The notes below the pieces were generated by a model. That model did no database searches. It saw only the letters and a program-made list of their open reading frames with translations, and was not told where the DNA came from. From Planctomycetota bacterium (GTDB taxonomy: Bacteria > Planctomycetota > PLA2 > JAEUHO01), in contig JAXMAB010000004.1 of NCBI GenBank assembly GCA_046350655.1, positions 1,005,225-1,069,224 of the forward strand: DNA of 64,000 nucleotides, in the 5' to 3' direction. Below are positions 5,176 through 48,593 of the stretch, in pieces. The position numbers and the translations under genes are program-made. Each line of letters opens with the position of its first letter. The stretch's first letter is position 1.

Positions 5176-5215
5176 GGGACCGCGAGGCCCGGCGGCCGGC
5201 GGGCCTCGCGGTCCC
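5176..5215. repeat. REP-like palindromic element (GGGACCGCGAGGCCC ggcggccggc GGGCCTCGCGGTCCC) in the convergent 3-prime region after pyk
   Basis: Perfect 15-bp inverted arms around a 10-nt loop. Member of a family seen at least 12 times in the window. Confidence 0.6.
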
Positions 5216-5248
5216 GAGCCCTCGACCGCGCGGCGACGGACCGCGCGC

Positions 5249-5461
5249 CTACAACGCGCCGGTCAGCCAGAGCCCGGCGGCCATCAGCGCCGCGCCGAGG
5301 ATCGCGGCCGTGGCGCCCTTCTGGACGCTCTTGTCGGCCAGCGCGATCACCCCGACCAGCAGGACCGCCATGCCCGTGAGCCCGAGGACGACGCCCATGA
5401 CGGTCTTGAGCGTGTCGCCGATCGAGGCCAGGACGAGGAGCGTGCTCAGGACGGCGGTCAT
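5249..5461 (-). CDS. small hydrophobic membrane protein (70 aa, two predicted TM helices)
   Basis: MTAVLSTLLVLASIGDTLKTVMGVVLGLTGMAVLLVGVIALADKSVQKGATAAILGAALMAAGLWLTGAL. Its ATG overlaps the stop of the upstream AI-2E gene (ATGA), so the two are translationally coupled. Strong GC3 bias. Confidence 0.5.
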   Translation of the reverse strand: MTAVLSTLLVLASIGDTLKTVMGVVLGLTGMAVLLVGVIALADKSVQKGATAAILGAALMAAGLWLTGAL

Positions 5462-6957
5462 GTCGATCCTCCCGGGGCGGCGGTCCCCGCGCGCCCCTTC
5501 CACTTGGCCAGCAGCTTCCGCATCCACGCGCCGTGGCCCGCGTGGGCCGACGGCGGCTCCTTCAGCACCTGCTCGCGGAACCACCGGAACGTCGAGAGGA
5601 CGAGGCTCGCGGTGGGCACGGCGAGCAGCGCGCCCCAGATCCCGAAGGCGTGCTCGCCGGCGAGCAGCGCGAAGATGATGAGCACCGGGTGCATCTCGGC
5701 GCTCGTGCCCATGATGAGCGGGTTGAACAGGTTGGCCTCGAGCAGGTGGATCAGCGAGATCCAGCCGAGCGCGAGGACGGCGTCCTTGAGGCCGCCGGTG
5801 GCGAGCGCCACGAGGACGATCGGGATGCTTGAGGCGATCGTGCCGAAGACGGGGATCAGGCTGAACACGCCCGCGACGAAGCCGAGGAGCGTCGCGTAGG
5901 GGACGCCGAGGAACAGCAGGCCCAGCCACGTGAGGATGCCGTTCACGACGCAGATGACGAGCTGGCCGCGGATCACGCCCGACAGCCCGCGGTCGACGTA
6001 GCCCATCAGCGAGCGGTAGCCGGGGCGCAGGTGGGGGGGCGGCAACGACTCGAAGAACGCGGCGATGCCCTTGCGGTCGGTCACGATGAACGCGGTGAGC
6101 ATCAGGACGAGCAGCAGCTCGTACAGCGAGCCCACGATCGTCACGGGGATCCTCTGGCTCCACGCGACGATCCGGCTGCCGAGGTTGGGCCCGTACTCGT
6201 CGCTGCGCTCCTTCACGAAGTCGCGGACGAGGCCCGGGTCGAAGTGCGAGCCGCTGATGCGCTCGATCTGGCGGGCGACGGGGGCGATGACCCACTTCTC
6301 CGACGTCAGCTCGAGGCCCTTCGCCTCGCGGTCGCCCACGGCCTCGACGGTGACGTCGGGGGTGAGGCGCAGCGGCTTCGGGTCGACGATCCGCAGCGGC
6401 TCGTCGGGCGCGGGGTACGTCGTCGCGGCCGGACCGGACGCGTCGAGGAGGACGCGGGCGTCGGGCAGGTCCTCGCCGATCTGCTCGGGGAACATCGTGC
6501 GGAAGCGCCGGCCGTCGGCCGTCTCGAGCTCGAGGCCCTCCGGGATCCAGATCCGCGCGTGCTGCTTCGGGTGGATCCGCAGGCGCGCGGCCGGCGCCGA
6601 CTTGTCGAGCTCGGCCTTCAGCTGCTGCGCGGCGCCCTTGGCGGTGTCGGACAGCTTCTGCACGCCGCACGAGACGCCCATCACGCACAGGCCGATCACG
6701 ACGACGTAGAGCGAGACGAGCACCGGGCCGCGGCCCCACTTGAGCCCGAACAGCTTGCCGCGCGTGGCCCAGTTGATCACCGGCTCGACGAGGTACGCGA
6801 CGTAGACCGCCATCAGGAACGGGAACAGCACCGACCGGAAGACGATCAGCAGCGTCACGAACGCGAGGACGAACGCGAGCATCGTGCGCGCGTACGCACG
6901 CGGCCACCGCCCCGGGGACGGGTCCGACGCGGGCGCGGTGGGGGCCGACGACGACAT
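5458..6957 (-). CDS. AI-2E family transporter (PerM/UPF0118-like permease)
   Basis: About 499 aa starting MSSSAPTAPAS (M113 of track ORF 5458..7293). Multiple TM helices and a conserved GQLVICVVNGILTWLGLLFLGVPYATLLGFVAGVFSLIPVFG block. The alternative start MLAFVLAF lies 25 codons downstream. Confidence 0.75.
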   Translation of the reverse strand: MSSSAPTAPASDPSPGRWPRAYARTMLAFVLAFVTLLIVFRSVLFPFLMAVYVAYLVEPVINWATRGKLFGLKWGRGPVLVSLYVVVIGLCVMGVSCGVQKLSDTAKGAAQQLKAELDKSAPAARLRIHPKQHARIWIPEGLELETADGRRFRTMFPEQIGEDLPDARVLLDASGPAATTYPAPDEPLRIVDPKPLRLTPDVTVEAVGDREAKGLELTSEKWVIAPVARQIERISGSHFDPGLVRDFVKERSDEYGPNLGSRIVAWSQRIPVTIVGSLYELLLVLMLTAFIVTDRKGIAAFFESLPPPHLRPGYRSLMGYVDRGLSGVIRGQLVICVVNGILTWLGLLFLGVPYATLLGFVAGVFSLIPVFGTIASSIPIVLVALATGGLKDAVLALGWISLIHLLEANLFNPLIMGTSAEMHPVLIIFALLAGEHAFGIWGALLAVPTASLVLSTFRWFREQVLKEPPSAHAGHGAWMRKLLAKWKGRAGTAAPGGST

Positions 6958-7014
6958 GCGGTCTACGCTACCCGGGGTCGCCCCCGGCGGCGAGGGGACC
7001 GGACGGCGCCGGCA

Positions 7015-7400
7015 CGCGCGAGGCCCCGGGCGGCGGTCAGGGGTTCGGGGACGCGAGGCCCGGTGGCCCGCGCGTCCCGGGGCCACGTCCGCGACCGGGC
7101 CTCGCGGTCCCGGACATCGTCCGGTTCCGCCCAACGGGGACCGGCACCCAATGGCGGAACCGGCGCGGGCGGCGATCCGCCAATAAACGACCGGCACGTA
7201 TTGGCGGGGACCGGCACCGAATGGCGGAACCAGCACGGGGGGTGTCCATCGACGGACGACCGGCGTCGATGGGCACGGGGGGCGATCCGCCAATCAACGA
7301 CCGGCACGTAGTGGCGGATGCGGTCGGCGGCGGTCGTCGAGAGGGGCGCCGGCCAGCGGGCCTCGCGTACCGGAGGCTCGGGGATCGCGCCCAGAGCGAA
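7015..7400. repeat. cluster of REP-like palindromes and GACCGGCAC-loop hairpin units between the AI-2E gene and the 3-prime end of the giant gene
   Basis: CGCGAGGCCCGG / CCGGGCCTCGCGGTCCC arms at 7061-7106. Units GGTTCCGCCCAACGGGGACCGGCACCCAATGGCGGAACC, GGCGATCCGCCAATAAACGACCGGCACGTATTGGCGG, GGGACCGGCACCGAATGGCGGAACC and GGCGATCCGCCAATCAACGACCGGCACGTAGTGGCGGATGCGG. Confidence 0.5.
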
Positions 7401-7684
7401 CGCCGGCGGCGGGGCCCGGCTCGGGCGAGTGGTGGCCAGGCCGCCTGCGGCCCGGCCTCCCTGCGACGTGCGCCTGCCGAGACTTCTCGCGCGCTACGTC
7501 GGGTCGATGTTGGTGCCGGCCGCCGTGAGATCGAGCAGCGTCCCGAGATCGACCAGCGTCGGGGGCTCGTAGGGCGCGGTGGCGGGGCGGGAATCGACGT
7601 GGGCCATGGCGAGGGAATGAAACACCAAAGGGGTCCGAGGGTCAACCGGGGAATCAGGCTCGGCCGGGGGCGGGGCCCCCGGGG

Positions 7685-10600
7685 TCAGCGGCGGTCGCCG
7701 CCCTTGGGGCGGTCCTTGCCCGCTTCGGGCGCGCGGGGGGTGGCGGAGCGGTCGTTCTTGTCGTTGCGGTCGTCCTTCTTGTCGTTGCCCCGCTCCTTGC
7801 CCTTGTCCTTGCCGTCGCCGCCGTCCTTGCCGCCGCGATCGCCGGGGACCGGGCAGACGTCCGGCTTCGGGGGCGGCGGGCAGGTGGGGACGGCGTCCGG
7901 GCAGGCCGCGGGGCCGTTCGTGCCGCGGTTGAAGGCCTTGAGGGTGCGGTGGAGGAGGACGGCGCGCTCCTCGGCGAGGCCGCAGAAGCCGCGGCAGCCC
8001 TGGACGAGCAGGCAGCCCGCCTCGTCGATCGCGTCGGCGACCTTCCGGGACGGGGTGTTGCCCGCGGCGACGTTGAGCTGTGCGGCGATGTAGGCCTGGG
8101 CGAGGGCGACCCACGCGTCGTCCTTGGCGGAGGCGTCGAGGATGGAGCGCCAGGTGCGGCCGCAGAGGCGGCGCGACTCGGCGCCGTCGAGCGGCCACGG
8201 GACGCGCGTGGCGGCGCAGGCGCCGTCGCGGTGGACGGCGCGCCACCAGCCGACGTCGCGGACGCAGGTGGTCGGGGGCGGCGGCGGCTCCCAGCACGCG
8301 AACGGGACGACCGAGGCGACGGCGAAGTCGGGGACGTCGTCGCACCAGAGCGGGGTCCAGTTGCGGGGGAACGTGGCGCCGGGCACGAGGGACGCGCGGG
8401 TGAACGTGTCGGCGGCGGCCTCGCCGACGCCGTTGACGACGACCTCGAGGCGGAACGGGCCGTCGAAGAAGCCGCCGTCGATCGTGCCCGGGTCGGCGGT
8501 CACGCAGACGCGGACCTTGGCGTAGCCGTCGACGACCGTGAGGCCTTCGACGCGGAGGACGCCGTTGGCGCCGACGGCGGTGCCGGGGAACGCGCCGGTG
8601 TAGCCGAGGCAGACGAGGTCGCGGATGTCGCCGGCGCGCGTGCCGCGGTCGACGCGGACGTACACGTCGAAGTCGCGGGTGTGCGGGTCGGCGAGCCAGA
8701 CGCTGGCTTCGAAGCAGGCTTCGTGGACGCGCGGGTCGGTGCCCGGGTCGCACGTCGGCGGCGCGGCGCGGTAGCCGAAGTCCTTCGTGAGGTCGGTGGA
8801 GCCGCCGGTGACGGCCGCCGGGACCGTCGCGGTCGCCGGGAACGTGCGGGTGAGGCCGGTGGGCAGCGTGCTCTCGACGACGCGGAGCCGGTAGGCGCCG
8901 TCGAGGAGGCCGGGGAAGAGGTAGGAGCCGCCGGGGCCGGTCAGCTGCGAGCCGACGACGCGCCCGGCGGCGTCGAGCAGCTCGACGGTGACGCCGGCGA
9001 GGCCCGGCTCGCCGGTGGGGTCCTGGAGGCCGTCGCCGTCGGCGTCGAGCCACACGCGGCCGCCGAGCGCGACGCGCGGGGCGCCGAAGCCGAAGTCCTT
9101 CGTGCGGTCCGTGGAGGCGTTCGTGACGGTCGCGGACTGCTGCAGGCCGCCCGTGGTGGACACGAGGCCCGGCGGCAGCGACGCCGCGACGACGCGGACG
9201 GTGTAGGCCCCGTTCGCGAGGCCGTCGAAGAGGTAGGCGCCGTCGGGGCCGGTGACCTTCGACGCGACGGGCTGGCCCGCGGCGTTCAGCAGTTCGAGCG
9301 TCACGCCCGGCAGCCCGGGCTCGCCGGGATCCTGGAGGCCGTCGCCGTCCGTGTCGGCCCAGACACGGTCGCCGATCGCGCCCGTGGGCGGGGGCGGCGG
9401 CGGGGGCGTCGAGGTGTGGAAGCCGAACTCGAGGCCGGTGACGTCGTTGCCGTTCGTGATCGTCGCGGGGCGGGAGGTGGGCGTGGTGGCGTTGTAGTCC
9501 GCGGGGACCGAGCCCGGCTGGACGCGCACCGTGTACGAGCCGTCGGGCAGGTGATCGAAGGTGTACGTGCCGTCGGGGCCGGTGGTGGTGGTCGCGACGA
9601 CATTGCCGTTGCGGTCGACGAGCTCGACCACCGCGCCCGGGATGCCGGGCTCGCCCGCGTCGGTCGTGCCGTCGCCGTCGGTGTCGTTGAACACGCGGCC
9701 GGTGATCGTGCCCGAGGGCTGGTAGCCGAAGTCCTTCGAGAGATCGGTCGAGGCGTTGAGCACCGTCGCGGCCTGCTGCGTGCCTCCGAACGTGTTCGTG
9801 AGGCCCGTGGGCAGCGTCGCCGGCACGACGCGCACCGTGTAGGTGCCGTCGGCGAGCCCGTCGAACAGGTAGCCACCCGCCGAGTTCGTGACCTCGGTCG
9901 CGATGACCTGGCCCGCCGCATTCAGCAGTTCGAGCGTCACGCGGGAGATGCCGTCTTCACCGGCGTCCTGGACGCCGTCGCCGTCGACGTCGAACCACAC
10001 GCGATCGCCGATCGCACCCGTGGGCGAGTCGAAGCCGAAGTTGAGGCCGGTGACGTCGCTGCCGCCCGTGATCACGGCCGGGAGCGACGTCGGCGTCGTG
10101 GCGTTGAGGCCGGCCGGAACGCTGCCGGGCTGGACCCGCACCGTGTAGGCGCCGTCGGGCAGGTGATCGAAGGTGTAGGTGCCGTCGGGGCCGGTCGTGG
10201 TGGTCGTGACGACGTTGCCGTTCGCATCGACCAGCTCGACCACCGCACCCGGGATGCCGGGCTCGCCGGCGTCGGTCGTGCCGTCGCCGTCGGTGTCGTT
10301 GAAAACGCGCCCGGTGATCGTGCCCGAGGGCTGGTAGCCGAAGTCCTTCGAGAGATCGGTCGAGGCGTTCGTGACCGTGGCGCTCTGCTGCGCGCCGCCG
10401 AACGTGTTCGTCAGGCCCGCCGGGAGCGTGGCCGGCACGACGCGCACGGTGTAGGTGCCGTCCGCGAGGCCGTCGAACAGGTAGCCGCCCGCCGAGTTCG
10501 TGACCTCGGTCGCGATGACCTGGCCCGCCGCGTTGACGAGCTCGAGCGTCACGCCGGAGATGCCGTCCTCGCCGGAGTCCTGGACGCCGTCGCCATCGAC

Positions 10601-13600
10601 GTCGAACCACACGCGATCGCCGATCGCACCCGTGGGCGAGTCGTAGCCGAAGTTGAGGCCGGTGACGTCGTTGCCGTTTGCAACGACCGCCGGGAGCGAG
10701 GTCGGCGTGGTGGCGTTGAGGCCGGCGGGCACGCTGCCGGGCTGGACGCGCACCGTGTAGGCGCCGTCCGGCAGGTGGTCGAACGTGTACGTGCCGTCGG
10801 GGCCGGTCGTCCTCGTGGCGACGACGTTGCCGTTCGCATCGACCAGCTCGACGATCGTGCCGGGGATGCCGGGCTCGCCCGCGTCGGTCGTGCCGTCGCC
10901 GTCGGTGTCGTTGAACACGCGACCGGTAATCGTGCCGGACGGCTGGTAGCCGAAGTCCTTCGAGAGGTCGGTGGACGCGTTCGTGACCGTGGCGCTCTGC
11001 TGCGCGCCGCCGAACGTGTTCGTCAGGCCCGCCGGGAGCGTGGCCGGCACGACGCGCACGGTGTACGTGCCGTCGGCGAGGCCGTCGAAGAGGTAGCCCC
11101 CGGCCGAGTTCGTGACCTCGGTCGCGATGACCTGGCCCGCCGCGTTGACCAGCTCGAGCGTCACGCCGGAGATGCCGTCCTCGCCGGCGTCCTGGACGCC
11201 GTCGCCGTCGACGTCGAACCACACGCGGTCGCCGATGGCGCCCGTCGGCGAGTCGTAGCCGAAGTTGAGGCCGGTCACGTCGTTGCCGCCTGCAACGACC
11301 GCCGGGAGCGACGTCGGCGTGGTGGCGTTGAGGCCCGCCGGGACGCTGCCCGGCTGGACGCGCACCGTGTACGAGCCGTCGGGCAGGTGATCGAAGGTGT
11401 ACGACCCGTCGGGGCCGGTCGTGGTGGTCGTGACGACTGTGCCGTTGCTGTCCACCAACTCGACGATCGCGCCGGGGATGCCCGGCTCGCCGGCGTCGGT
11501 GGTTCCGTCGCCGTCAATGTCGTTGAAGACGCGGCCGGTGATCGTGCCCGAGGGCTGGTAGCCGAAGTCCTTCGAGAGATCGGTCGACGCGCTCGTGACC
11601 GTGGCGCTCTGCTGCGTGCCGCCGAACGTGTTCGTGAGGCCCGCCGGGAGCGTGGCCGGCACGACGCGCACCACGTAGGTGCCGTCCGCGAGGCCGTCGA
11701 AGAGGTAGCCACCGGCCGAGTTCGTGACCTCGGTCGCGATGACCTGGCCCGCCGCGTTGCGCAGTTCGAGCGTCACGCCGGAGATGCCGTCCTCGCCGGC
11801 GTCCTGGACACCGTCGCCATCGACATCGAACCACACGCGATCGCCGAGCGCGCCCGTGGGCGAGTCGTAGCCGAAGTTCAGACCGGTGACGTCGCTGCCG
11901 CCGACGATGTCCGCGGGCAGCGACGCGGGCGTCGTCGCGTTGAGGCCGGCCGGGACGCTGCCGGGCTGGACGCGCACCGTGTACGCGCCGTCGGGCAGGT
12001 GATCGAAGGTGTAGGTGCCGTCGGGGCCGGTCGTGGTGGTCGCGACGACGTTGCCGTTGCTGTCGACGAGCTCGACCACCGCACCCGGGATGCCCGGCTC
12101 GCCGGCGTCGGTCGTGCCGTCGCCGTCGGTGTCGTTGAACACGCGGCCGGTGATCGTGCCCGAGGGCTGGTAGCCGAAGTCTCTCGAGAGATCGGTCGAG
12201 GCGTTGAGCACCGTCGCGGCCTGCTGCGTGCCGCCGAACGTGTTCGTGAGGCCCGCCGGGAGCGTGGCCTGCACGACGCGCACGGTGTAGGTGCCGTCGG
12301 CGAGGCCGTCGAACAGGTAGCCACCCGCCGAGTTCGTGACCTCGGTCGCGATGACCTGGCCCGCCGCGTTGCGCAGTTCGAGCGTCACGCCGGAGATGCC
12401 GTCCTCGCCGGCGTCCTGGACGCCGTCGCCATCGACGTCGAACCACACGCGATCGCCGAGGGCGCCGGTGGGCGAGTCGTAGCCGAAGTTGAGGCCGGTG
12501 ACGTCGTTGCCGTTCGTGATCGTCGCGGGGAGCGAGGTCGGCGTGGTGGCGTTGAGGCCGGCCGGCACGCTGCCGGGCTGGACGCGCACGGTGTACGCGC
12601 CGTCGGGCAGGTGATCGAAGGTGTAGGTGCCGTCGGGGCCGGTCGTGGTGGTACCGACGACGTTGCCGTTCGCGTCCACCAGTTCGACGATCGCGCCGGG
12701 GATGCCGGGCTCGCCGGCGTCGGTCGTGCCGTCGGCGTCGACGTCGTTGAAGACGCGCCCGGTGATGGTGCCCGAGGGCTGGTAGCCGAAGTCTTTCGAG
12801 AGGTCGGTGGACGCGTTCGTGACGGTGGCCGACTGTTGCGTGCCGCCGAACGTGTTCGTCAGGCCCGCCGGGAGGGTCGCCGGCACGACGCGCACCACGT
12901 AGGTGCCGTCGGCGAGGCCGTCGAAGAGGTAGCCACCGGCCGAGTTCGTGACCTCGGTCGCGATGACCTGGCCCGCGGCGTTGCGCAGTTCGAGCATCAC
13001 GCCGGAGATGCCGTCCTCGCCGGCGTCCTGGACGCCGTCGCCATCGACGTCGAACCACACGCGGTCGCCGATGGCGCCCGTGGGGGAGTCGTAGCCGAAG
13101 TTGAGGCCCGTGACGTCGCTGCCGCCCGTGATCGTCGCAGGGAGCGAGGTCGGCGTCGTGGCGTTGAGGCCGGCCGGGACGCTGCCGGGCTGGACGCGCA
13201 CGGTGTAGGCGCCGTCGGGCAGGTGATCGAAGGTGTAGGTGCCGTCGGGGCCGGTCGTGGTGGTCGCGACGACGTCGCCGTTGCTGTCGACGAGCTCGAC
13301 CACCGCGCCCGGGATGCCCGGCTCGCCGGCGTCGGTCGTGCCGTCGCCGTCGGTGTCGTTGAACACGCGACCGGTGATCGTGCCGGACGGCTGGTAGCCG
13401 AAGTCCTTCGAGAGATCGGTCGAGGCGTTCGTGACCGTGGCGCTCTGCTGCGCGCCGCCGAACGTGTTCGTCAGGCCCGCCGGGAGCGTGGCCGGCACGA
13501 CGCGCACCGTGTAGGTGCCGTCGGCGAGGCCGTCGAACAGGTAGCCGCCCGCCGAGTTCGTGACCTCGGTGGCGACCACCTGACCCGAGGCGTTGACGAG

Positions 13601-30525: not shown

Positions 30526-30561
30526 GACACGCGAGGCCCGGTGCGAACCGGGCCTCGCGTC
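30526..30561. repeat. REP-like palindrome GACACGCGAGGCCCGG tgcgaa CCGGGCCTCGCGTC between convergent rnc and the 30560..33004 gene (overlaps the latter's stop codon)
   Basis: Inverted arms seen directly. Confidence 0.6.
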
Positions 30562-33004: not shown

Positions 33005-33050
33005 GACACCCTCCGCGAGCAGCGTACCCGGGCGCGGTCCGTCGTGCCGG

Positions 33051-33212: not shown

Positions 33213-33400
33213 GCGTCGCGCGCTCCGTGCCCGGGGCCGACCTCGCTCCGCCGACGTCGGACGGCCGCGATCCAGGTGAGGTTCGGGGTCGTCCGCTCCA
33301 TCCCGGCATTGTGCCACGCGACTCTCCGTCGGCGGCCGCCGGGCCTCGCGTCCCGGGGAGGGGGATGCGGACAGGACGGTGGGGCAAGGGTCGCGGGGCG

Positions 33401-35533: not shown

Positions 35534-35614
35534 GACGTCCTCCCTCCCCAGCGTACCCGCCCGGCCGGAGCGGGTGGGGGCGCCCGCGCGCGCGCGGGTA
35601 CCATCGGCCCTTTC

Positions 35615-40287: not shown

Positions 40288-40315
40288 GCGGGCCCGGGGC
40301 GAGCTCGGGCCCGGC

Positions 40316-40356
40316 GGGGACGCGAGGCCCGGCGGCCGACCGGGCCTCGCGTCCCC
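40316..40356. repeat. REP-like palindrome GGGGACGCGAGGCCCGG cggccga CCGGGCCTCGCGTCCCC immediately after the SurA-like gene, preceded by a second hairpin GGGCCCG gggcgagct CGGGCCC (40291-40313)
   Basis: Inverted arms seen directly. Confidence 0.6.
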
Positions 40357-40381
40357 GGGGAGCCCGACCGCGCCCCCGACC

Positions 40382-41419
40382 GTGCTGCGGCCCGTGGCCC
40401 GACGCCGGCGCGGCCCCTTCGACGTCGCGATCCTCGCGGTCGCGGTCGCGCTCGCGCTGGTGCCCGCCGGGGCCTTCGTCGCGCGACTCGCGCGGGGCAC
40501 GCCGGCGACGACGCAGCCGTTCCTGTTCCCTGCGGGCGAGCGGGCGGCGTTCGAGGCGCTGCGGGACCGCGCGGCGAAGGGGCTCCTGTCGCTGCAGCAG
40601 CCCGGCGGCGGGTTCCTGCCGCGCGTCGACGCGGTGGACGTGGATCCGTTGGACCGCGCCGAGGCGACGGCGATGGGCCTCGCGGGCCTCGCGGTCGCGT
40701 CGCGGCTCGGGTCGCGGGTGGCCGGGCTCGAGGACGGGCTCGCGCGCGCGCGGCGGACGCTGACGCAGCTGCAGTCGCAGTCGGGGCAGTTCGGCGTGAG
40801 TCGCCGGCCGCGGCGCGGGGTGGGGGTGAGCGCGGTCGCGTGCGGCGTGATCGGGCTGTGCGTCGTCGGCGATCCGGGGGACGTCACGTACCTCGAAGCG
40901 GCGGGCCGGGCCCTGGTCGCGCAGGCGCAGATGGGGACGCTGCCGAGCGGGTGGGTGCAGGCGGTCGCCGCGCGCGGCCTGGCGCAGCTGGTCGAGAGCG
41001 GGTACGGGGCGTGGCTCGGCGACGACCCGGTGTCCGTGCTGCCGACGCAGCGGATCGAGCTGGCTCGGCGGGTGACGGACAGCCACGTCGCGCAGGCGCT
41101 CGTGCTGCAGATCGAGACGGCGCTCGGGGCGCCGCCCGTGGACCTGCCGAAGGCCGTGCTGCGGAGGATCCTCGACGATCCGCCGACGTGGACGGGGCTC
41201 GAGAGCGACATGGGGTCGTGGGTCCAGCAGGCGTGGCTCGCGGCGCGGCTCCCGGAGGGGCCCGCGTGGTTCGCGAACGCGCTGTCGGAGCTCGCGAAGG
41301 CACCGGGGGAGACCGGGGTGGTCGAGGGCGACTACTACGGGTATCCGGTCGCGCGGACGGCGGGGCTCCTGCTGGTCCTGTGGGAGGGCGGCGGGCGGCG
41401 GCGGATCGGAGCGCCGTAA
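40382..41419 (+). CDS. hypothetical membrane protein with a prenyltransferase/squalene-cyclase-type repeat (QxxxGGF)
   Basis: 345 aa (GTG start). N-terminal TM segment FDVAILAVAVALALVPAGAFVA. Motif LLSLQQPGGGFLP. Otherwise not recognised. Confidence 0.5.
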   Translation: MLRPVARRRRGPFDVAILAVAVALALVPAGAFVARLARGTPATTQPFLFPAGERAAFEALRDRAAKGLLSLQQPGGGFLPRVDAVDVDPLDRAEATAMGLAGLAVASRLGSRVAGLEDGLARARRTLTQLQSQSGQFGVSRRPRRGVGVSAVACGVIGLCVVGDPGDVTYLEAAGRALVAQAQMGTLPSGWVQAVAARGLAQLVESGYGAWLGDDPVSVLPTQRIELARRVTDSHVAQALVLQIETALGAPPVDLPKAVLRRILDDPPTWTGLESDMGSWVQQAWLAARLPEGPAWFANALSELAKAPGETGVVEGDYYGYPVARTAGLLLVLWEGGGRRRIGAP

Positions 41420-41610
41420 GTCCGCCGGGCGACGGGGCTTACAGGCGTCGAACCGCGGGCAGGCTCGTCCGTTTACTCCGGGGAAGCCGGACTCTAGAAT
41501 GCGCCGCTCGGACGGTCCGAAGGCGCATCCTCGGCCGGCCCCCATGTTCTCGGCGACCGGCCTTCCCGGGCGACTTGCCCGGGGGGGAACCGAACGGAGA
41601 CTCTCGACCG

Positions 41611-43221
41611 ATGGCTCGCACCGAACGGATCGAACACCAGCCGCAGTTCCTGGAGCAGGGCGGCGACTTCAACGACCAGCTCTACAAGGCGCTGCGCGCC
41701 AGCCCGTGGTGGATGATCTCCATCGCGTTCCACGTCCTCCTGGGCGTGATCTCGAGCCTGATGACGTCGGACGCCCCGCCGCCGCAGAAGAACCTCCAGA
41801 TGGTGGCGAGCATGAACGCGGCCGAGCCGCCGGCCGTCGAGGAGCCGCCGCCGACGCCGGAGGAGACCGAGCAGATCCACCAGTCGGACGTCGTGGCGAA
41901 GGAGCCGACGGTCAAGGACGCCGAGCTCAGCGACCACAACGAGACCGACAACGACCTCCCGACCGAGGAGTCGCTCGGCGAGAGCGGCATCTCCGACGCC
42001 CCGTTCGAGGGCCCGGCGAACAACGGCCTCATCGGCATCGGCGGCAGCGCCGGCGGCGCCTTCAAGGGCCGCGGCGGTCACCGCAACCTGCGCGCGGGCG
42101 GCGGCGGCAAGAAGGCCGACGACGCGGTCGAGGACGCGCTGAAGTGGCTCGCCGCGCACCAGTCGGCCGACGGCGGCTGGGAGTGCGAGGGCTTCCGCAA
42201 GTGGTGCGACGGCAAGACGATCTCGGGCGAGGGCCCGGACGGCGCCGGCAAGGCCCAGTACGACGTGGGCGTGACGGGCATGGCCCTGCTCGCGTTCCTC
42301 GGCGCGGGCTACACGAACCGCTCGGAGGGCCCGTTCGGCAAGGTGGTCGGCAACGGCCTCAAGTACCTGCGCAACGTGCAGGACGCCGAGGGCTGCTTCG
42401 GCAGCCGTTCGTCCGGTCACTTCGTCTACAACCACGCGATCGCCGCGCTCGCCATGGTCGAGGCGTTCGGCATGACGGGTTCGACGAACTTCAAGAACCC
42501 CGCCCAGAAGGCGCTCGACTTCATCGCGATCTCGCGCAACCCGTACTTCGCCTGGCGCTACGGCATCAAGCCGGGCGACAACGACACCTCGGTGACGGGC
42601 TGGATGATGATGGCGCTCAAGAGCGCGAAGCTCATCAACCAGGCCGACGTCAAGGCCGGCAAGCCCGTCTCGCTGCAGTACGACGAGGAGGCCTTCGAGG
42701 GCATCAAGGCCTGGATCGAGAAGATGACGGACCCGGACTACGGCCGCGTCGGCTACCAGCAGCGCGGCACGGGCCCGGCGCGTCCGACCGAGCTCGTCGA
42801 CAAGTTCCCCGCCGACAAGTCGGAGTCGATGACCGGCGTCGGCATGCTGGCCCGCATCTTCCTCGGTGAGAACCCGAAGACGAGCGACCCGATCAAGAAG
42901 GGCGCCGAGCTCTGCTCGAAGGTCGCCCCGAAGTGGGACCCGAACGACGGCTCGATCGACATGTACTACTGGTACTACGCGACCCTCGCGATGTTCCAGG
43001 TCGGCGGCCCGACGTGGGACGCGTGGCAGAAGGCCATGAAGACGGCCATCATCGACACGCAGCGGAAGGACACCGACTTCTGCATGTACAAGGGTTCGTG
43101 GGACCCGATCGACCCGTGGGGCCCGGACGGCGGCCGCGTCTACTCGACGGCGTGCCTCGCGCTCTGCCTCGAGGTCTGGTACCGCTACGACAAGGTGTTC
43201 GGCGCGGCGGGCGAGAAGTAG
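41611..43221 (+). CDS. membrane-anchored alpha/alpha-toroid protein with prenyltransferase / squalene-hopene-cyclase-type repeats
   Basis: 536 aa from ATG 41611 (M258 of track ORF 40840..43221, with GGAGA upstream). TM segment WWMISIAFHVLLGVISSLM, Pro/Glu-rich linker, then KWLAAHQSADGGWECEG, GMALLAFLGAGYT, LRNVQDAEGCFGS, LDFIAISRNPYFAWRYG: the QxxDGGW/terpenoid-cyclase repeat pattern. Confidence 0.75.
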   Translation: MARTERIEHQPQFLEQGGDFNDQLYKALRASPWWMISIAFHVLLGVISSLMTSDAPPPQKNLQMVASMNAAEPPAVEEPPPTPEETEQIHQSDVVAKEPTVKDAELSDHNETDNDLPTEESLGESGISDAPFEGPANNGLIGIGGSAGGAFKGRGGHRNLRAGGGGKKADDAVEDALKWLAAHQSADGGWECEGFRKWCDGKTISGEGPDGAGKAQYDVGVTGMALLAFLGAGYTNRSEGPFGKVVGNGLKYLRNVQDAEGCFGSRSSGHFVYNHAIAALAMVEAFGMTGSTNFKNPAQKALDFIAISRNPYFAWRYGIKPGDNDTSVTGWMMMALKSAKLINQADVKAGKPVSLQYDEEAFEGIKAWIEKMTDPDYGRVGYQQRGTGPARPTELVDKFPADKSESMTGVGMLARIFLGENPKTSDPIKKGAELCSKVAPKWDPNDGSIDMYYWYYATLAMFQVGGPTWDAWQKAMKTAIIDTQRKDTDFCMYKGSWDPIDPWGPDGGRVYSTACLALCLEVWYRYDKVFGAAGEK

Positions 43222-43255
43222 GCGTCCTCCCGCAACGAACGTCCTGAGTCTCTCC

Positions 43256-43294
43256 GCGCGCCCGCCGGCACCCGCCGGCGGGCGCGCGCATTTC
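43256..43294 (+). terminator. intrinsic terminator after the 41611..43221 gene
   Basis: 13-bp perfect stem GCGCGCCCGCCGG cacccg CCGGCGGGCGCGC followed by cATTTCT. Confidence 0.55.
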
Positions 43295-43321
43295 TACGCG
43301 GGCTGCGCTGCGCCTGCGGGC

Positions 43322-43540
43322 CCGCGGGACGGCGGAACAACGGGGTCGTAGCCCTCCGTTTCGCGGTCGGCGTCCGGGCCTCGCGTCCCCGGGGGATCGG
43401 CCGCGAAGTTGGAACAACGGGGTCGTAGCCCTTTGTTCCACGTCGACGTCGGGCGACGCCGAAACAACGGGGTCGTAGCCCTTCGTTTCGCTGTCGACCG
43501 GGGGGAAGTTGGAACAACGGGGTCGTAGCCCCTTGTTCCA
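43322..43540. repeat. tandem array of four ~30-nt hairpin repeats (GGAACAACGGGGTCGTAGCCC(T/C)TTGTTCCA and GRAACAACGGGGTCGTAGCCCTYCGTTTCG variants alternating), spacers 50/20/20 nt, in a convergent 3-prime intergenic region
   Basis: Repeats at 43331, 43411, 43461 and 43511. Each folds as GGAACAA-C-GGGG tcgtag CCC(C)-TTGTTCC. The first spacer contains a REP-like half site CCGGGCCTCGCGTCCCC. Confidence 0.6.
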
Positions 43541-43542
43541 GA

Positions 43543-44835
43543 TCAGGGGTCCAGGCGCGTGCGGTCGCGGGGGTAGAGGCACGCCTCGCGGACGTTCGCC
43601 AGGCCCGCGAGCTGGGCGGTGAGCCGCTCGAGGCCGATCGCGAGCCCGCCGTGGGGCGGCATGCCGACGTCGAACATGCGGAGGTGGCCCGCGAAGGCCG
43701 CCGGGTCGATGCCGCGGGAGCGGATCGAGGCCTCGAGGTCCGAGCGGAGGTGACGGCGCTTGCCGCCCGTCGTGATCTCGAGCCCCCGATAGAGGAGGTC
43801 GAACGACTCGGCGGCCCCCGCGGTGCCGCGCGGATGCGTGTAGAACGGCCGCGCGGCGATCGGGAACCCGACCACGAAGACCGCCGCGACGCCGTGCTGC
43901 CGCTCGGCGAGCGCGCAGAGCTGCCGCTCGCCCTCGGGGTCGAGGTCGTCCACGAGGTCGGCGCGGCCCGCGTCGCGCCGGAGGCGCCCGAGGCACTCGC
44001 CGAACTCCCAGACCGGCGCGCGCTCGATCGTCGGCGGGGGCGCGACCCCCAGCGGCTTCCAGAGCGCGGCGTGCTCCGCCGCGAGGCCCGCGAACATCTC
44101 GCAGAGCACCTCGCGCTCCAGCTCGATCACGTCCTCGGCGGCGTCCACGAACGCCATCTCGAGGTCGAGGGAGAGGTACTCGGTGAGGTGCCGCGACGTC
44201 GCGTGCGGCTCCGCCCGGTAGACGTGCCCGGTCTCGAACACGCGCTCGAGGCCCGCGGTCCCGTGCTCCTTGAAGAACTGCGGGCTCTGCGCCAGGTAGG
44301 CCACGCGGTCGAAGTAGGTGACCGGGAAGAGGTTGGCGCCGCCCTCCGTGCCCCCGGACACGAGCTTCGACGTCACGATCTCGGTGAACCGCCGCCGACG
44401 GAGCGCGGCCCGGAAGCCCTCGAGGAGGGCCGCCTGCAGGCGGAACACCGCGCCGACGCGCTCGTTGCGCAGCGAGAGGGGGCGGTGCGCGAGGACCGTC
44501 TCCGCGCCCACGGCCGACAGGTCGGCGCTCGCGTGGAACGGGAGGTCCTGCGCCGCCCGGGCGAGCACCTTGGCCTCGAGGATGTCCACCTCGACGCCCC
44601 CGTAGCGGGAGCGCGGGTCGGGGCGCACCTTGCCCCGGAACTCGACCACGTCGTCGAGGGAGAGGGCGAGCGGCGCCAGGGCCGGCGTGGCCGCGACGCA
44701 CTGCATCTGCCCGGAGGCGTCCTGCAGCACCACGAAGGTCGTGTGCGACAGCACGCGGAGCCGGTGGACCCAGCCCGCGAGGACGACCTCGGTGCCGCTA
44801 CGCTGCGCAAGCTCCGCGAGGAAGGTCTTGCGCAC
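43543..44835 (-). CDS. class IIb aminoacyl-tRNA synthetase, archaeal-type (short) AspRS or AsnRS
   Basis: 430 aa, GTG start. N-terminal OB anticodon-binding domain. Class II motif 2 YRAEPHATSRHLTEYLSLDLE, motif 3 GGLAIGLERL. The length fits archaeal-type AspRS better than AsnRS, but sequence alone does not decide. Confidence 0.8.
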   Translation of the reverse strand: MRKTFLAELAQRSGTEVVLAGWVHRLRVLSHTTFVVLQDASGQMQCVAATPALAPLALSLDDVVEFRGKVRPDPRSRYGGVEVDILEAKVLARAAQDLPFHASADLSAVGAETVLAHRPLSLRNERVGAVFRLQAALLEGFRAALRRRRFTEIVTSKLVSGGTEGGANLFPVTYFDRVAYLAQSPQFFKEHGTAGLERVFETGHVYRAEPHATSRHLTEYLSLDLEMAFVDAAEDVIELEREVLCEMFAGLAAEHAALWKPLGVAPPPTIERAPVWEFGECLGRLRRDAGRADLVDDLDPEGERQLCALAERQHGVAAVFVVGFPIAARPFYTHPRGTAGAAESFDLLYRGLEITTGGKRRHLRSDLEASIRSRGIDPAAFAGHLRMFDVGMPPHGGLAIGLERLTAQLAGLANVREACLYPRDRTRLDP

Positions 44836-44911
44836 GATCTGGCCTGCCGACGTAGGACGGGACGCGGATCATGGGGGGGACCTCCTCGCGGAGCGCCGGA
44901 CCTGCGTCCGG

Positions 44912-45187
44912 TTACTTCGCCTTCTTGACCGCCGAGGCGACCGCCTTGGCGAGCTTGCTCTTGTGGTTCGACGCCGTGTTCCGGTGGATCACGTGGCGCT
45001 TCGCGGCCTTGTCGAGCTTCTTGAACGTGTGGGGGAGGAGGGCCTCCGCCTCCTTCGCCTTGCCGGCCGCGAGGAGGGCGCGGAGGTCCTTCTCGGCGGC
45101 GCGCATCGCGCCCTTCGTGGCGAGGTTGGCGACGCGACGGCGCTCGTTCTGGCGGACGCGCTTCTTGGATGAACGGCTGTGGGGCAT
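44912..45187 (-). CDS. rpsT: 30S ribosomal protein S20
   Basis: 91 aa: MPHSRSSKKRVRQNERRRVANLATKGAMRAA...KRHVIHRNTASNHKSKLAK. A CCGGAC ctgc GTCCGG hairpin follows the stop. Confidence 0.9.
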   Translation of the reverse strand: MPHSRSSKKRVRQNERRRVANLATKGAMRAAEKDLRALLAAGKAKEAEALLPHTFKKLDKAAKRHVIHRNTASNHKSKLAKAVASAVKKAK

Positions 45188-45288
45188 CGGGAGAGTCTTT
45201 CCAGGTCAGGTTCGTTCGGGACGCTTGGGAACGGTCAGGGACAAGGGACGGACGACGGGGGCGGCCGGGGCGGGGGATGACCGGGAGG

Positions 45289-46626
45289 TCAGCTCCCCAG
45301 ACCCTCGAGCTTGGCACCCACGTCGCGGTACGAGATGTCCACCTCGTAGATCTTGGTGAACTCGCGGCGCGCGTCCTCCTTCGCGCCGCGCTTCTCGTGG
45401 AGCTCGCCGAGGCGGAAGGTGATCTCCTTCGCGCGGTCGGAGTTGAGCTGGGGGAAGTCCTCCGCGGCCTTGGCGACCTGCTTGACCGCCAGGTCGAGGA
45501 GGTTCTTCTTCTCGAAGCAGTCCGCGAGCCGCATGAGGCTGTCGGTCTTCTTGCGCGGGTCCTGCACGGTCTTCTGGAACTCGCCGATGGCCTCGTCGAG
45601 GCGGTTGGCCATCAGCAGCACGAGGCCCAGGCGGAACCGCTCGCCGAGGTCGGTCGGGTGCTCGCGGACGCGGCGGCCGTACTCGGCCAGCCGCGCCTCG
45701 ACCAGCGCCGTCCGCGCGGCCTGGAACGCCGCGAGGTTCTCGTCGGTCTCGGACACGGCGTAGCGCCGGCGGGCCTCGTCGTACGGGACCTGCAGCTTCT
45801 GCAGCTTCATGTCGCCGATGCGGATCGACAGGTCGTAGTTGCCCGGGTCGGTCTTGAGCACCAGCTCGAGCTGCTCGAGCGCGGCGTCCGTGTTGCCCTG
45901 CTGCTGCAGGACGTCGGCCAGGCGGAGGCGCGTGCGCGCCGCCGTCGCCGGGTTCTTCTCGATGTCGGCGCGCAGGCGCGCGGCCTCGTCGGTCGCGTCC
46001 TGGTCGGTCAGCTGGAGGCGCGTGTCGCGCTCGAGGCGCCCCGCGACCTCCTTGTCCTTGATCAGCTCGCGCGACGACTTCGCGGTCTCGTAGCCGCCCT
46101 GCTTGAGGGCGCCCTCGGCGGCCAGGTTCTTGCGCATCTTCAGCGCTTCCTGGTCCTTCGGGTCGATGCGGGCCGCCTCGCCGTAGGCGTCGGAGGCCTC
46201 CTTGATCTTGCCCTGGCGGTACAACGCCGCCCCGAGCGACTTCCACGCCGTGTTGTCCTCGGGGTCGAGCTTCGCGGCCATCTTGAAGCCGAACTGCGCG
46301 GCGTTCAGGAAGTTGCCCGCCTCGCCGGCCTCGCCGAGCGTCATCCAGGCGTCCTTGTCGTCCGGGTTCTTCGCGAGGTGGCGCGCGGCCGCCGCGATCT
46401 TCTTCTGCGGGTCGCGGACCGACGCGATGCCGAGGCGGCCCATGCCGCCGAACAGCGACTTCCCCTTGCCCTCGCGGCGCTTCTCGGCCGCCTGGTGCAG
46501 CCCCTCGAGCGCCTCGATGTCGTTCGGGTCGAGCTGGATGACCTCGAGGTACATCTCGACGGCGAGGTCGTAGTTCTTCCGCTTGAACGAATCGCGAGCC
46601 TTGGACTTGAGGTCGGCGACGCCCAT
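45289..46626 (-). CDS. tetratricopeptide (TPR) repeat protein
   Basis: 445 aa from M41 of track ORF 45289..46746 (AGGA upstream). Repeated A..YLEV.QLDPND.EAL / W..LG.AL...G...EA...Y..A..IDPKD 34-residue TPR pattern. Confidence 0.75.
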   Translation of the reverse strand: MGVADLKSKARDSFKRKNYDLAVEMYLEVIQLDPNDIEALEGLHQAAEKRREGKGKSLFGGMGRLGIASVRDPQKKIAAAARHLAKNPDDKDAWMTLGEAGEAGNFLNAAQFGFKMAAKLDPEDNTAWKSLGAALYRQGKIKEASDAYGEAARIDPKDQEALKMRKNLAAEGALKQGGYETAKSSRELIKDKEVAGRLERDTRLQLTDQDATDEAARLRADIEKNPATAARTRLRLADVLQQQGNTDAALEQLELVLKTDPGNYDLSIRIGDMKLQKLQVPYDEARRRYAVSETDENLAAFQAARTALVEARLAEYGRRVREHPTDLGERFRLGLVLLMANRLDEAIGEFQKTVQDPRKKTDSLMRLADCFEKKNLLDLAVKQVAKAAEDFPQLNSDRAKEITFRLGELHEKRGAKEDARREFTKIYEVDISYRDVGAKLEGLGS

Positions 46627-46768
46627 GGAGGTCCTGTGGGGAGCGCTGGGGGAGGCCCGGCGCGAACGACGCAGGGTAGTCCGGCCGCCCCCCGGGGACA
46701 ACCTCCGCGGGGGGTGGCCGGAGCGCCGGTGGCCCCTCCCTCCCACCCCCGGCTACAATCGCCCGGCG

Positions 46769-47287
46769 ATGCACGTCGAGATCGTCCACTGGCCGAACCC
46801 CATCCTCACCCGGGGGACGTCCCCGGTCACCCCGGCGGATCTGACGGACGACTTCCGTGACACGGTCGCCCAGATGACCCGCCTCATGATCGACCTCCGG
46901 GGCGTCGGCCTGGCGGCCCCCCAGGCCGGCATCGGCAAGCGGTTCATGCTCGTCTGCCCGACGGGCGAGGCCGGCGACGAACGGGTCGTCATCAACCCCG
47001 AGATCGTGGCCCGCGAGGGCGACGAGGAGATGGAGGAGGGCTGCCTCTCCTTCCCCAAGATCTACGGGACCATCCGCCGCGCCGCCAAGGTGAAGGTCCG
47101 CTGGCGCGACCTCGACTGGAAGGAGCACGAGGAGGTCCTCGACGGCTTCATCGCCCGCATCTTCCAGCACGAGCTCGACCACCTCAACGGCGTCGTCTTC
47201 ATCGACCGCATGGACGACACCGACCTCTCGGCCGCCAAGCCCCGCCTCGCCGAGCTCAAGAAGGCCTTCGCCGCGACGCCGCGGTGA
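46769..47287 (+). CDS. def: peptide deformylase
   Basis: 172 aa: GVGLAAPQ, EGCLSFP, HELDHLNG motifs. A -10-like TACAAT lies at 46754-46759. Confidence 0.9.
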   Translation: MHVEIVHWPNPILTRGTSPVTPADLTDDFRDTVAQMTRLMIDLRGVGLAAPQAGIGKRFMLVCPTGEAGDERVVINPEIVAREGDEEMEEGCLSFPKIYGTIRRAAKVKVRWRDLDWKEHEEVLDGFIARIFQHELDHLNGVVFIDRMDDTDLSAAKPRLAELKKAFAATPR

Positions 47288-47291
47288 CCCC

Positions 47292-48251
47292 GTGCGCGTC
47301 GTCACCGGCCGCGACGCGCTGACCCAGGCCTCGTTCCGCCGCCCGGTCGTCGCCATCGGAGTCTTCGACGGCGTCCACCGCGGCCACCGCCACGTCCTCG
47401 AGAGCCTCCGCGCCTTCGCCGACGAAGCCGACGGCGAGGCCGTCGTCGTCACCTTCGACACCCACCCGCGCGCCCTCCTCGACGGCCGGGCCCCGCGCCC
47501 GCTCGTCTCCCTCGCGCACCGCCTCCTCCTGCTCTCGCGCCTCGGCCTCGACGCCGTCGTCGTCCTCCCCTTCGACGCCGCCATGCGCGACACGCCCTTC
47601 GACGCCTTCGTCGCCGACGTCCTGGTCGGCCGCATCGGCGTCCGCGGCCTCCTCTTCGGCTACGACACCTGCTTCGGCCGCGACGGCCTCGGCACCTTCG
47701 ACACCGTCGCGCCCCTCGCGCTCCGCCACGGCTTTGCGGTCCGCCGCGCGCCGCCCATCGCCGTCGGCGGCCGCCCCATCTCCGCCACCCGCATCCGCGA
47801 AGCCCTCGAGCGCGGCGACCTCGAGGCCGCCGCCGAGCTCCTCGGCCGCCCGCCCACGCTCTACGGCCCCGTCGTCCACGGCGACGGCCGCGGCCGCACC
47901 CTCGGCTTCCCGACCGCCAACGTCGACCTCGAGGGCGAGTCGCTCCCGCCCGCCGGCGTCTACCAGGTCGTCGCCACGCTCCGCGGCCGCCGCTACGCCG
48001 CGGTCGCCAACATCGGGACGCGACCCACCTTCCCGGACGCGAGGCCCGCCCGCCCGCTGCTCGAGGTCCACGTCCCCGGCGTCGACTTCGCCTTCTACGG
48101 CGAGCCCCTCGAGGTCGAGCTGGTCCGCAAGATCCGCGACGAGCAGCGCTTCCCGAACCGCGACGCGCTCGTCGCGCAGATCCGCCGCGACGTCGCGTCG
48201 CTCGCCCTCCCCGCCGCCGACGATCCGGCCGGCGGGCCGACCGATCGCTGA
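47292..48251 (+). CDS. ribF: bifunctional riboflavin kinase / FMN adenylyltransferase
   Basis: 319 aa, GTG start 5 nt after the def stop. GVFDGVHRGH N-terminal FAD-synthetase motif and a C-terminal riboflavin kinase domain (GRTLGFPTANV, PTFPD). Confidence 0.85.
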   Translation: MRVVTGRDALTQASFRRPVVAIGVFDGVHRGHRHVLESLRAFADEADGEAVVVTFDTHPRALLDGRAPRPLVSLAHRLLLLSRLGLDAVVVLPFDAAMRDTPFDAFVADVLVGRIGVRGLLFGYDTCFGRDGLGTFDTVAPLALRHGFAVRRAPPIAVGGRPISATRIREALERGDLEAAAELLGRPPTLYGPVVHGDGRGRTLGFPTANVDLEGESLPPAGVYQVVATLRGRRYAAVANIGTRPTFPDARPARPLLEVHVPGVDFAFYGEPLEVELVRKIRDEQRFPNRDALVAQIRRDVASLALPAADDPAGGPTDR

Positions 48252-48295
48252 CCCGCCGCGGTACGCTCTCCGCCTCCCTTCCTCGGAGCCCCGCC

Positions 48296-48520
48296 ATGGC
48301 CGATCCCGCCCCGAACGTCACCGTCACCGTCAAGCCGAACGGCCCGCTCCTCGTCGCCGGGCCCATCACCCTCGTCGACCCCACGGGCCAGACGGTCGCG
48401 TTGCCGGCCGGCCGTCCCACCGCGCTCTGCCGCTGCGGCCACTCGACGATGAAGCCGTTCTGCGACGGCTCCCACGGCCCCAAGGGCTTCCACGCGGCCG
48501 AGGCGGCGCCGAAGCGCTGA
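48296..48520 (+). CDS. CDGSH-type iron-sulfur domain protein
   Basis: 74 aa with CRCGHSTMKPFCDGSHGPKGF, which matches the C-X-C-X2-(S/T)-X3-P-X-C-D-G-(S/A/T)-H signature. Confidence 0.75.
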   Translation: MADPAPNVTVTVKPNGPLLVAGPITLVDPTGQTVALPAGRPTALCRCGHSTMKPFCDGSHGPKGFHAAEAAPKR

Positions 48521-48538
48521 CGCCCGGTCGTGCGCCCC

Positions 48539-48593
48539 GGGACGCGAGGCCCGGTCGCCGTCCCTCCGGACGGCGCGCGGGCCTCGCGGTCCC
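48539..48593. repeat. REP-like palindrome GGGACGCGAGGCCCGG ..(nested GCCGTCCctcCGGACGGC hairpin).. CGGGCCTCGCGGTCCC after the CDGSH gene
   Basis: Inverted arms with a nested inner hairpin in the loop. Confidence 0.6.

Follow-up and report, generated by a model that had tools for sequence, protein, structure and literature searches.

The 64,000-nt stretch of contig JAXMAB010000004.1 analyzed here (the window, from a Planctomycetota bacterium) carries many copies of a short repeat, termed type A, which occurs as single arms and as inverted pairs, or dimers, and which is the subject of this report. The GC content is 72-76% along the whole window. Because a plain listing of open reading frames (ORFs) is useless at this GC content, the gene map was built with a caller based on codon-position GC and codon log-odds, and it was checked with Pfam. 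The genes encode a LOG-family protein, TypA, pyruvate kinase (pyk), an AI-2E transporter, a repetitive and probably surface-located protein of ~4,300 aa, a release factor, PurH, Dps, RNase III (rnc), two CarboxypepD_reg proteins, Mfd, a SurA-like peptidyl-prolyl isomerase, aspartyl-tRNA synthetase, S20, a deformylase, RibF, a CDGSH protein, tRNA-Phe, an FGE-sulfatase protein, two sigma-54 activators, a dUTPase, and Usp. A sequence-only reading of the same DNA had interpreted the repeat as an abundant element of the repetitive extragenic palindromic (REP) or bacterial interspersed mosaic element (BIME) type that lies mostly 3′ of genes or in convergent gaps and probably acts as a terminator or mRNA stabilizer.

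The 14-mer GACGCGAGGCCCGG was searched with up to 2 mismatches, and dinucleotide-preserving shuffles of the 64-kb window served as the null. The search returned 50 matches as compared to 11.6 ± 3.6 in the shuffles (maximum 22), and the exact 14-mer was found 10 times. Within it, the 11-mer CGCGAGGCCCG is an invariant core with 45 exact copies in 64 kb (20 on the plus strand and 25 on the minus strand, ~0.7 per kb). The ~7.5 kb of non-coding DNA (~12% of the window) holds 27 of the 45 exact cores and the other 18 lie in coding sequence (CDS), so that the core is ~12 times denser in non-coding than in coding DNA. The abundance claimed by the sequence-only reading is thus upheld, with a count far above chance. 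A polar word resembling the FtsK-orienting polar sequence (KOPS) or Chi was rejected, since the two strands are near equal and strand skew is absent.

The extent of the repeat unit was read from an information profile of 72 arms, taken from the window and a related metagenome-assembled genome (MAG) and aligned on the core. Information content is restricted to positions -8 to +20 around the core, and the consensus, CnCCGGGAC(C)GCGAGGCCCGG-CGGCCGnCG, describes a unit of ~30 nt. Three 5′ variants of the arm occur (GGGA-, GGGAC-, and GGTA-/GGCA-), as do two classes of flank, alpha and beta. The motif GCGGTCG lies 7-10 nt upstream of 27 arms, its GGTCG being kept as sequence whatever the arm variant, and about 21 arms have the C-rich flank CCCCTCTCCC. 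Several dimers carry a different flank class at each end, which results in an asymmetric element of ~75-80 nt. The shared sequence from -8 to +20, together with the alpha and beta flanks, indicates that the arms are copies by descent and not convergent terminators. At 25646-25677, the 5′ half of an arm self-pairs differently (GGGACCGCGAC-gcccggcggcc-GTCGCGTCCC), a candidate case that shows arm sub-parts recombining into other palindromes.

Seven type A dimers were identified in the window, with perfect GC stems of 13-17 bp that extend to 30-40 bp when the flanks are included. The five inverted pairs reported by the sequence-only reading (5176-5215, 28235-28273, 30526-30561, 40317-40355, and 48539-48593) are all present, and they start 19-57 nt past the stops of pyk, dps, rnc, the SurA-like gene, and the CDGSH gene, respectively. 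The dimer after pyk (5159-5229; arms 5176-5191 on the plus strand and 5200-5215 on the minus strand) sits in a convergent gap, has the loop CGGCCGG and the outer flanks GCGGTCG/CGACCGC, and folds at -67.4 kcal/mol (z -5.3). The dimer 57 nt past the dps stop joins a left arm of the GGGACG variant to a right arm of the GGGACCG variant. The third separates rnc (+) from a converging CarboxypepD_reg gene (-), whose TGA is overlapped by the right arm of the dimer, and folds at -45.3 kcal/mol (z -3.3). The dimer after the SurA-like gene (40291-40381; arms 40317-40331 and 40341-40355) has a palindrome that extends to 42-nt arms and folds at -77.5 kcal/mol (z -4.4). The fifth, 19 nt past the stop of the CDGSH gene, contains a nested hairpin in its 24-nt spacer, folds at -62 kcal/mol (z -4.9), and is conserved in the related contigs L101 and L102. 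Two pairs are additional to those known before: a pair with a 33-nt spacer at 7048-7111, at the edge of a cluster spanning 7015-7371 (-63.2 kcal/mol, z -1.6), and a dimer in the mfd reading frame at 35947-35991, which occupies 35947-36025 together with a beta-type flank. The dimer loop is 6-9 nt and usually CGGCCG-like, with spacers of up to 33 nt. As RNA, the dimers fold at -45 to -77 kcal/mol with best z-scores of -3 to -5, which bears out the hairpins proposed for the five pairs. Dimers of 36-55 nt are perfect palindromes, and the hairpins after pyk and the SurA-like gene reach 30-40 bp.

Among the gaps of the window, arms are found in 4 of 7 convergent, 10 of 19 tandem, and 2 of 8 divergent gaps, and none of the 8 divergent gaps contains a dimer. 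In a wider set that comprises the window and related DNA, 33 of 41 dimers adjoin a gene 3′ end by a crude classification. The preference for gene 3′ ends is real in the window, not exclusive overall, and modest in the wider set. At Rfam gathering thresholds only tRNA-Phe was returned from the window, and no known RNA family was found over the repeats.

Head-to-head dimers take in about one-third of the arms, and single arms account for about half to two-thirds of the copies. Nearly all of the single arms reported earlier were found, displaced by no more than ~10 nt; those at ~630 and ~54380 are of the GGCAC variant and the one at 63986 is intragenic. We add arms at 16789, 25646, and 49123 and ~14 core-only copies in CDS. 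The arm at 33340-33354 (-) carries the beta-type flank CATCCCCCTCCCC and has a fold z-score of +0.6, and the arm at 39031-39046 (+) lies in the 3′ tail of mfd, a part of the ORF rich in Gly and Pro. Further downstream, the arm at 48664-48679 (-) has the same orientation as the arm at 48578, the arm at 49123-49138 (-) borders or falls within an ORF start that is uncertain and is conserved in L101 and L103, and the arm at 49891-49905 (+) is found 35 nt past a gene and upstream of tRNA-Phe. Two arms of the GGTAC variant occupy a 75-nt convergent gap (52908-52922, -) and, with an alpha flank, a divergent gap (59565-59579, +).

Type A shares its gaps with two more hairpin repeat families, types B and C, which the sequence-only reading had not described. 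Type B has a fixed 27-nt centre, GCCA-N6-[GT][AT]CCGGCA[CT]-N5-TGGC, within a stem, and an invariant apex, G-[A/T]CCGG-C. From one subfamily to another, the outer stem shows covarying changes (TTCC/GGAA, ATCC/GGAT, and ACGC/GCGT). In an alignment of 19 copies, 75% of the cells pair as compared to ~38% once the partners are slid; nine pairs are changed on both sides, and none of 500 shuffles reaches the covariation score. All nine window copies lie on the plus strand regardless of the direction of the neighboring gene (786-885, 7117-7327, 20903-20953, and 25560-25788), and the family is also present in the related stretches L094, L098, L119, and L126. Type C, GGAACAACGGGGTCGTAGCCCcTTGTTCC, has GTAG in its loop and stems that covary (GGAAC/GTTCC, GAGAC/GTCTC, and GGAGC/GCTCC). 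Four copies lie at 43327-43545 (+), where the array in the convergent gap 43222-43542 varies from 2 to 5 copies between strains, and the family is also found in L101-L104, L120, and L124.

Mixed A/B clusters occur at four places. At 768-900 (-), the order is A (768-783), B (786-836), B (835-885), and A (885-900). The cluster at 7015-7371 continues past the inverted pair at its edge with B at 7117-7167, 7167-7217, and 7277-7327 and a single A arm at 7357-7371 (-). At 20864-21044, A arms at 20864-20878 (+), 20955-20970 (+), and 21029-21044 (-) accompany B at 20903-20953, and between prf and purH (25535-25809), A arms at 25535-25550 (+), 25646-25661 (+), and 25795-25809 (-) accompany B hairpins at 25560-25610, 25671-25721, and 25738-25788. 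Types A and C occur together at 43327-43545, where a single A arm (43375-43389, -) lies amid the type C repeats. The A/B clusters look like BIME-type mosaics.

One dimer is found inside a gene. In mfd (35660-39106, +), a type A dimer and its C-rich flank are in frame in the N-terminal region. The ~25 residues encoded there (…REARSAPASGPRVPGEGPPSPRAGS…) are missing from six Mfd homologs (45-64% identical) at exactly the dimer site, and the missing segment corresponds to nt ~35951-36025, that is, to the dimer and C-rich flank (~75 nt). This is the one good sign of a past block insertion, and intragenic REPs in repair genes have been documented (PMC3733652).

To place the family among other genomes, 185,579 species genomes were scanned once for the paired core, which gave at least 100 matches, so that the taxonomic spread is a lower bound. 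Among the matches listed, 21 of 100 came from ‘Planctomycetia bacterium isolate new MAG-19’ (GCA_016795345.1, 74.9% GC), and the rest came from unrelated bacteria of high GC content, each as a lone hairpin whose loop and flanks differ. In MAG-19, the flanks, loop, and outer motifs are as in the window, the match density is 7.2 per 10 kb, and at least 20 dimers are present. The inverted-pair arrangement therefore extends beyond the window. Tandem arrays of the core also occur in MAG-19, as micro-arrays at L022:174-260 and L069:1-130, one of CGACGCGAGGCCCGggcca with a ~19-nt period and the other of GCACGCGAG/GTGAGGCCC repeats abutting a dimer. The S20 protein of the window is identical to those of MAG-19, GCA_041917585.1, and two Logan assemblies, and the contigs that encode it are syntenic with and 89-96% identical to window positions 39085-51877, which establishes them as close relatives. 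Exact-protein look-ups gave no match for Dps, the TPR protein, or the PQ-loop protein, and a single 1.2-kb contig for Usp. A metagenome scan with the commonest dimer returned 26 short stretches of 70-78% GC that do not overlap the window. In more distant relatives (Mfd 45-55% identical, 75-80% GC), no exact core was found in a small sample of three contigs and 9.1 kb.

Comparison of the close relatives also bears on the stability of the repeats. Over 13 kb of orthologous sequence, each of the ~9 arms is found at the same position in every strain, and the dimer after the SurA-like gene is conserved in L101 and L102, with uncompensated substitutions in one arm. L103 is without ~86 nt between the direct arms at 48578 and 48664 (window 48578-48679), which reads as a footprint of recombination or slippage at the repeats. 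The contigs L101 and L102, from two independent related assemblies, end at ~39085-39164, about 40-120 nt downstream of the arm at 39031-39046, and the repeats are probably a cause of fragmentation when this lineage is assembled from short reads.

Taken together, our favored reading, to which we assign a probability of roughly 0.58, is that type A is a lineage-specific, untagged REP/BIME-like repeat family whose dimers act as 3′-end RNA hairpins. The shared flanks, the mfd insertion, the mosaics, the footprints of recombination, and the confinement to a single lineage point to copied elements of the REP/BIME type. At the RNA level, we infer that dimers transcribed at mRNA ends would form hairpins with folding energies of -45 to -77 kcal/mol that could block 3′-to-5′ exonucleases, so that upstream transcripts would be punctuated and stabilized. 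REPs of E. coli are 3′-end RNA hairpins that protect or delimit transcripts, and based on this precedent, the position of the dimers, and their folding energy, the same function is the most likely one here. The hairpins might also make RNA polymerase pause or stop although no U-tract follows, a possible but unsupported route to termination. Type A is accompanied by the classical stem-loop families B and C in BIME-like mosaics. As to mobility, single arms may be half-elements, either left by or serving as substrates of recombination or slippage at the palindromes.

Several observations weigh against this reading. By the crude classification mentioned above, 8 of the 41 dimers in the wider set look divergent; the earlier claim of a location 3′ of genes or in convergent gaps is supported by the window dimers past gene stops. 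The dimer hairpins are followed by GC-rich sequence with no T-run. Single arms fold like shuffles (z -0.7 to +0.7), and since lone arms are without structure, the repeat unit is non-palindromic and a palindrome arises only where two units are inverted; attempts to read the single arm as a small hairpin, either GNRA-capped or GCGGTC/GACCGC, were rejected, given z ~0 and an upstream GGTCG that persists across arm variants. The arm consensus contains no GTAG or CGTC tag, with CGTC occurring only within the paired stem of one variant. No insertion polymorphism was found among the ~9 arms of the 13-kb orthologous region. Finally, a REP-associated tyrosine transposase (RAYT) was sought with E. coli TnpA_REP (checked against PDB 4ER8) and IS608 TnpA as phmmer queries and with an HUH...Y regular expression, and no RAYT or IS200-like Y1 transposase was found among the ORFs from all six frames of ~305 kb of lineage DNA, a weak negative because the search extended to this DNA and not to a whole genome. 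The REP/BIME assignment of the sequence-only reading is partly supported: it stands on position, pairing, and mosaic clustering, and it is strained by the non-palindromic unit, the absent tag, the lack of a T-run, the RAYT not found in the ~305 kb, and the CDS enrichment described below.

The lack of a T-run also bears on the proposed role as terminators, which is not supported. A consensus terminator scan of positions 28000-47999 called no hairpin and found 4 sites as compared to 4.2 by chance; the dimer hairpins are missed by such a canonical scan because they are without a T-run. “Terminator” would therefore be a conjectural name for them, and a hairpin protecting the mRNA 3′ end is the more defensible label.

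The copies inside genes count further against the favored reading, and for classical REPs an over-representation in genes is not found. Within window genes, CGCGAGGCCCG is the commonest 11-mer, with 18 copies in 12 genes as compared to 1.4 expected when codons are shuffled within genes and 2.6 expected when proteins are fixed and synonymous codons are shuffled. The core and its extensions have the top z-scores (6-11) among the 40 commonest coding 11-mers. In an independent 157 kb of lineage DNA with automatic gene calls, 15 in-CDS cores were found as compared to 4.7 expected. The excess is real at 3-7 times, it shrank under better nulls and in independent data, and part of it may come from gene-call error. 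The dominant frame is that of the antisense copies, 10 of 18, which read [A/P]-G-L-A; 4 of 18 are sense copies that read D-A-R-P by way of AGG, which accounts for 1.8% of arginine codons. A-R-P spelled GCG AGG CCC occurs 5 times as compared to 0.07 expected. The copy in ribF (GGACGCGAGGCCCG, 48034-48048, +) encodes PDARP with AGG and is conserved in L101-L104. The loop that contains it differs by three residues from solved RibF structures, and this copy is therefore no block insertion. Another arm with the rare AGG codon is in frame in a giant ORF (16789-16803, -), where it encodes ...GYARPGG....

This in-gene excess is central to the main alternative, which we consider unlikely and in which the core is a genomic word akin to DNA uptake sequences (DUS) and uptake signal sequences (USS), or one recognized by some other protein, that is kept by drive or selection (for instance through biased uptake and recombination or through a DNA-binding protein) and whose pairs were recruited as 3′-end hairpins. 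The more specific proposal that (A/C)CGCGAGGCCCG(G/C) is a protein-recognized word under selection or drive, foremost as a third, independent DNA-uptake-type signal in a Planctomycetota-labelled lineage, appears improbable. A word of this kind would account for a non-palindromic unit with unfolded single copies, a sharp information profile around an invariant 11-mer, near-equal strands at ~0.7 copies per kb, and the failure to find a RAYT; the non-coding density, ~12 times that of coding DNA, argues the other way. The in-CDS count (18 vs 2.6) with its top z-score, the spelling with rare AGG, the ribF copy that arose without block insertion, and the single dominant frame ([A/P]GLA in 10 of 18, as described for DUES) are likewise consistent with a word, yet the excess falls to ~3 times in the independent 157 kb, far under the DUS/USS scale. 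Inverted pairs by gene ends resemble DUS/USS terminators. However, the intergenic copies have 30-80 nt of flank similarity, 30-40 bp palindromes, and tandem arrays and so look copied, and a ~75-nt block was inserted in mfd. The more distant relatives contain no exact core in their small 9.1-kb sample, and neither competence genes nor an uptake receptor were found among the ~39 window genes scanned with Pfam.

A further alternative, which we judge doubtful, is that the arms are terminal inverted repeats (TIRs) of an insertion sequence or of a derived miniature inverted-repeat transposable element (MITE), with dimers as TIR-TIR miniatures and single arms as solo TIRs. The alpha and beta flanks do make the left end differ from the right in some dimers (~75-80 nt), but the elements as a whole, at 36-90 nt, are below typical MITE length. 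The block insertion in mfd and the breaking of assemblies at arms would fit a mobile element, whereas no target-site duplication was seen at the dimers, no insertion polymorphism was seen between strains, and no transposase gene was found beside any arm in the DNA examined. That the hairpins are independently evolved GC-rich terminators, alike since GGCCCG/CGGGCC stems are favored at 74% GC, is very improbable and is excluded by the shared flanks: one-off CGCGAGGCCCG...CGGGCCTCGCG hairpins do occur in many unrelated high-GC genomes, but with unrelated flanks and loops, whereas here the flanks, the CGGCCG loop, and the outer motifs are shared, about half to two-thirds of the copies are unpaired single arms, and the 10 exact 14-mers compare with far fewer than 1 expected.

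Some features of the neighboring genes were observed in passing. The giant ORF (7685-20596, -, ~4,300 aa) consists mostly of 612/306-nt tandem repeats that are 85-92% mutually identical, and its product is probably a surface adhesin-like protein. The RNase III ORF (28672-30477, +, 601 aa) has its catalytic and dsRBD domains in residues 1-223, followed by a long tail with a low-complexity Arg/Asp-rich stretch (…RDRDARDARDPRDRDRDR…) and weak codon bias. The GGCAC-variant cores at 621-635 and 54380-54394 have an AT-rich stretch directly upstream (…aatttctGGGCACGCGAGG… and …gaagtatcaccTGGCACGCGAGG…), and one of the two sits in a divergent gap beside a sigma-54 activator gene. A sigma-54 promoter reading of these tGGCACGCGAGGCCCG copies (621 and 54380), judged by eye, was rejected, with the sequence being -24-like and having no GC at -12. 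Two paralogous sigma-54-dependent response regulators are encoded at 52946-54328 (-) and 61896-63362 (+), and their AAA+ cores form inverted repeats of 58-125 nt with 73-86% complementarity.

The analysis provides an uncultivated lineage of ~74% GC with a sequence-defined repeat family and at least three co-resident hairpin families. The sites scanned contain no canonical terminators, and the dimer hairpins are the obvious candidates for ending or protecting transcripts. The contig breaks at arms would explain the fragmented assemblies of the lineage. The family also tests the reach of the REP/RAYT model, with a non-palindromic unit, no tag, a RAYT that was not found, and in-gene enrichment. 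Should the CDS enrichment prove general across the genome, a sequence-specific drive like that behind DUS and USS would be indicated beyond the two families known for it, and if the core is a genomic word, its inverted pairs would double as 3′-end hairpins, as in Neisseria and Haemophilus.

Among known systems, type A resembles the REPs and BIMEs of Enterobacteria and Pseudomonas (PMC3733652). Like these, it is short, high-copy, mostly extragenic, and, for the window dimers, located downstream of genes or in convergent gaps, it forms larger hairpins as head-to-head dimers, it takes part in mosaics, and it has an occasional in-frame copy in a repair gene. Unlike these, its unit is not a stem-loop, the GTAG/CGTC tag is absent, a RAYT has yet to be found, the core is over-represented in CDS, and the dimer spacer is only 6-9 nt. 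Classically, each REP unit is an imperfect palindrome of 20-40 nt, whereas type A is palindromic only as a dimer. REPINs, the REP doublets associated with RAYTs (Bertels & Rainey 2011, PMC3116915; PMC3337134), are similar in that inverted doublets form a long hairpin (in type A of up to 40 bp), singlets occur beside doublets, and copies persist vertically at orthologous sites. They differ in that each REP of a REPIN is itself palindromic and the spacer is longer, and the system is defined by a single-copy RAYT flanked by repeats, of which none was found in the ~305 kb of lineage DNA. The DUS and USS of Neisseriaceae and Pasteurellaceae (10.1101/2025.10.24.684340) resemble type A in three respects: their non-palindromic cores (9-12 nt) occur about once per kb on either strand, inverted pairs of the core form terminator-like hairpins, and the copies within genes have one dominant reading frame. 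Type A departs from them in a CDS excess of only 3-7 times, long flank similarity, block insertions, and no evidence of competence. Rickettsia palindromic elements and intragenic REPs provide a parallel for an in-frame palindromic insertion that leaves a housekeeping gene (here mfd) intact; the Rickettsia elements are 100-150 bp, and here there is one clear intragenic case. Because the stem-loop unit and the GTAG/CGTC tag are absent, we file type A as untagged REP-like and not as REPIN-RAYT. Untagged REP-like families are an acknowledged category (PMC3733652), and those of M. tuberculosis, D. radiodurans, Bordetella, Brucella, and cyanobacteria are likewise lineage-specific palindromic repeats without a terminal tag or known transposase, with sequences unrelated to type A, which stems from a Planctomycetia-labelled lineage of very high GC. 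The repeat family described here is therefore new, and it belongs to a kind of system, REP/BIME-like intergenic repeats, that is already well known.

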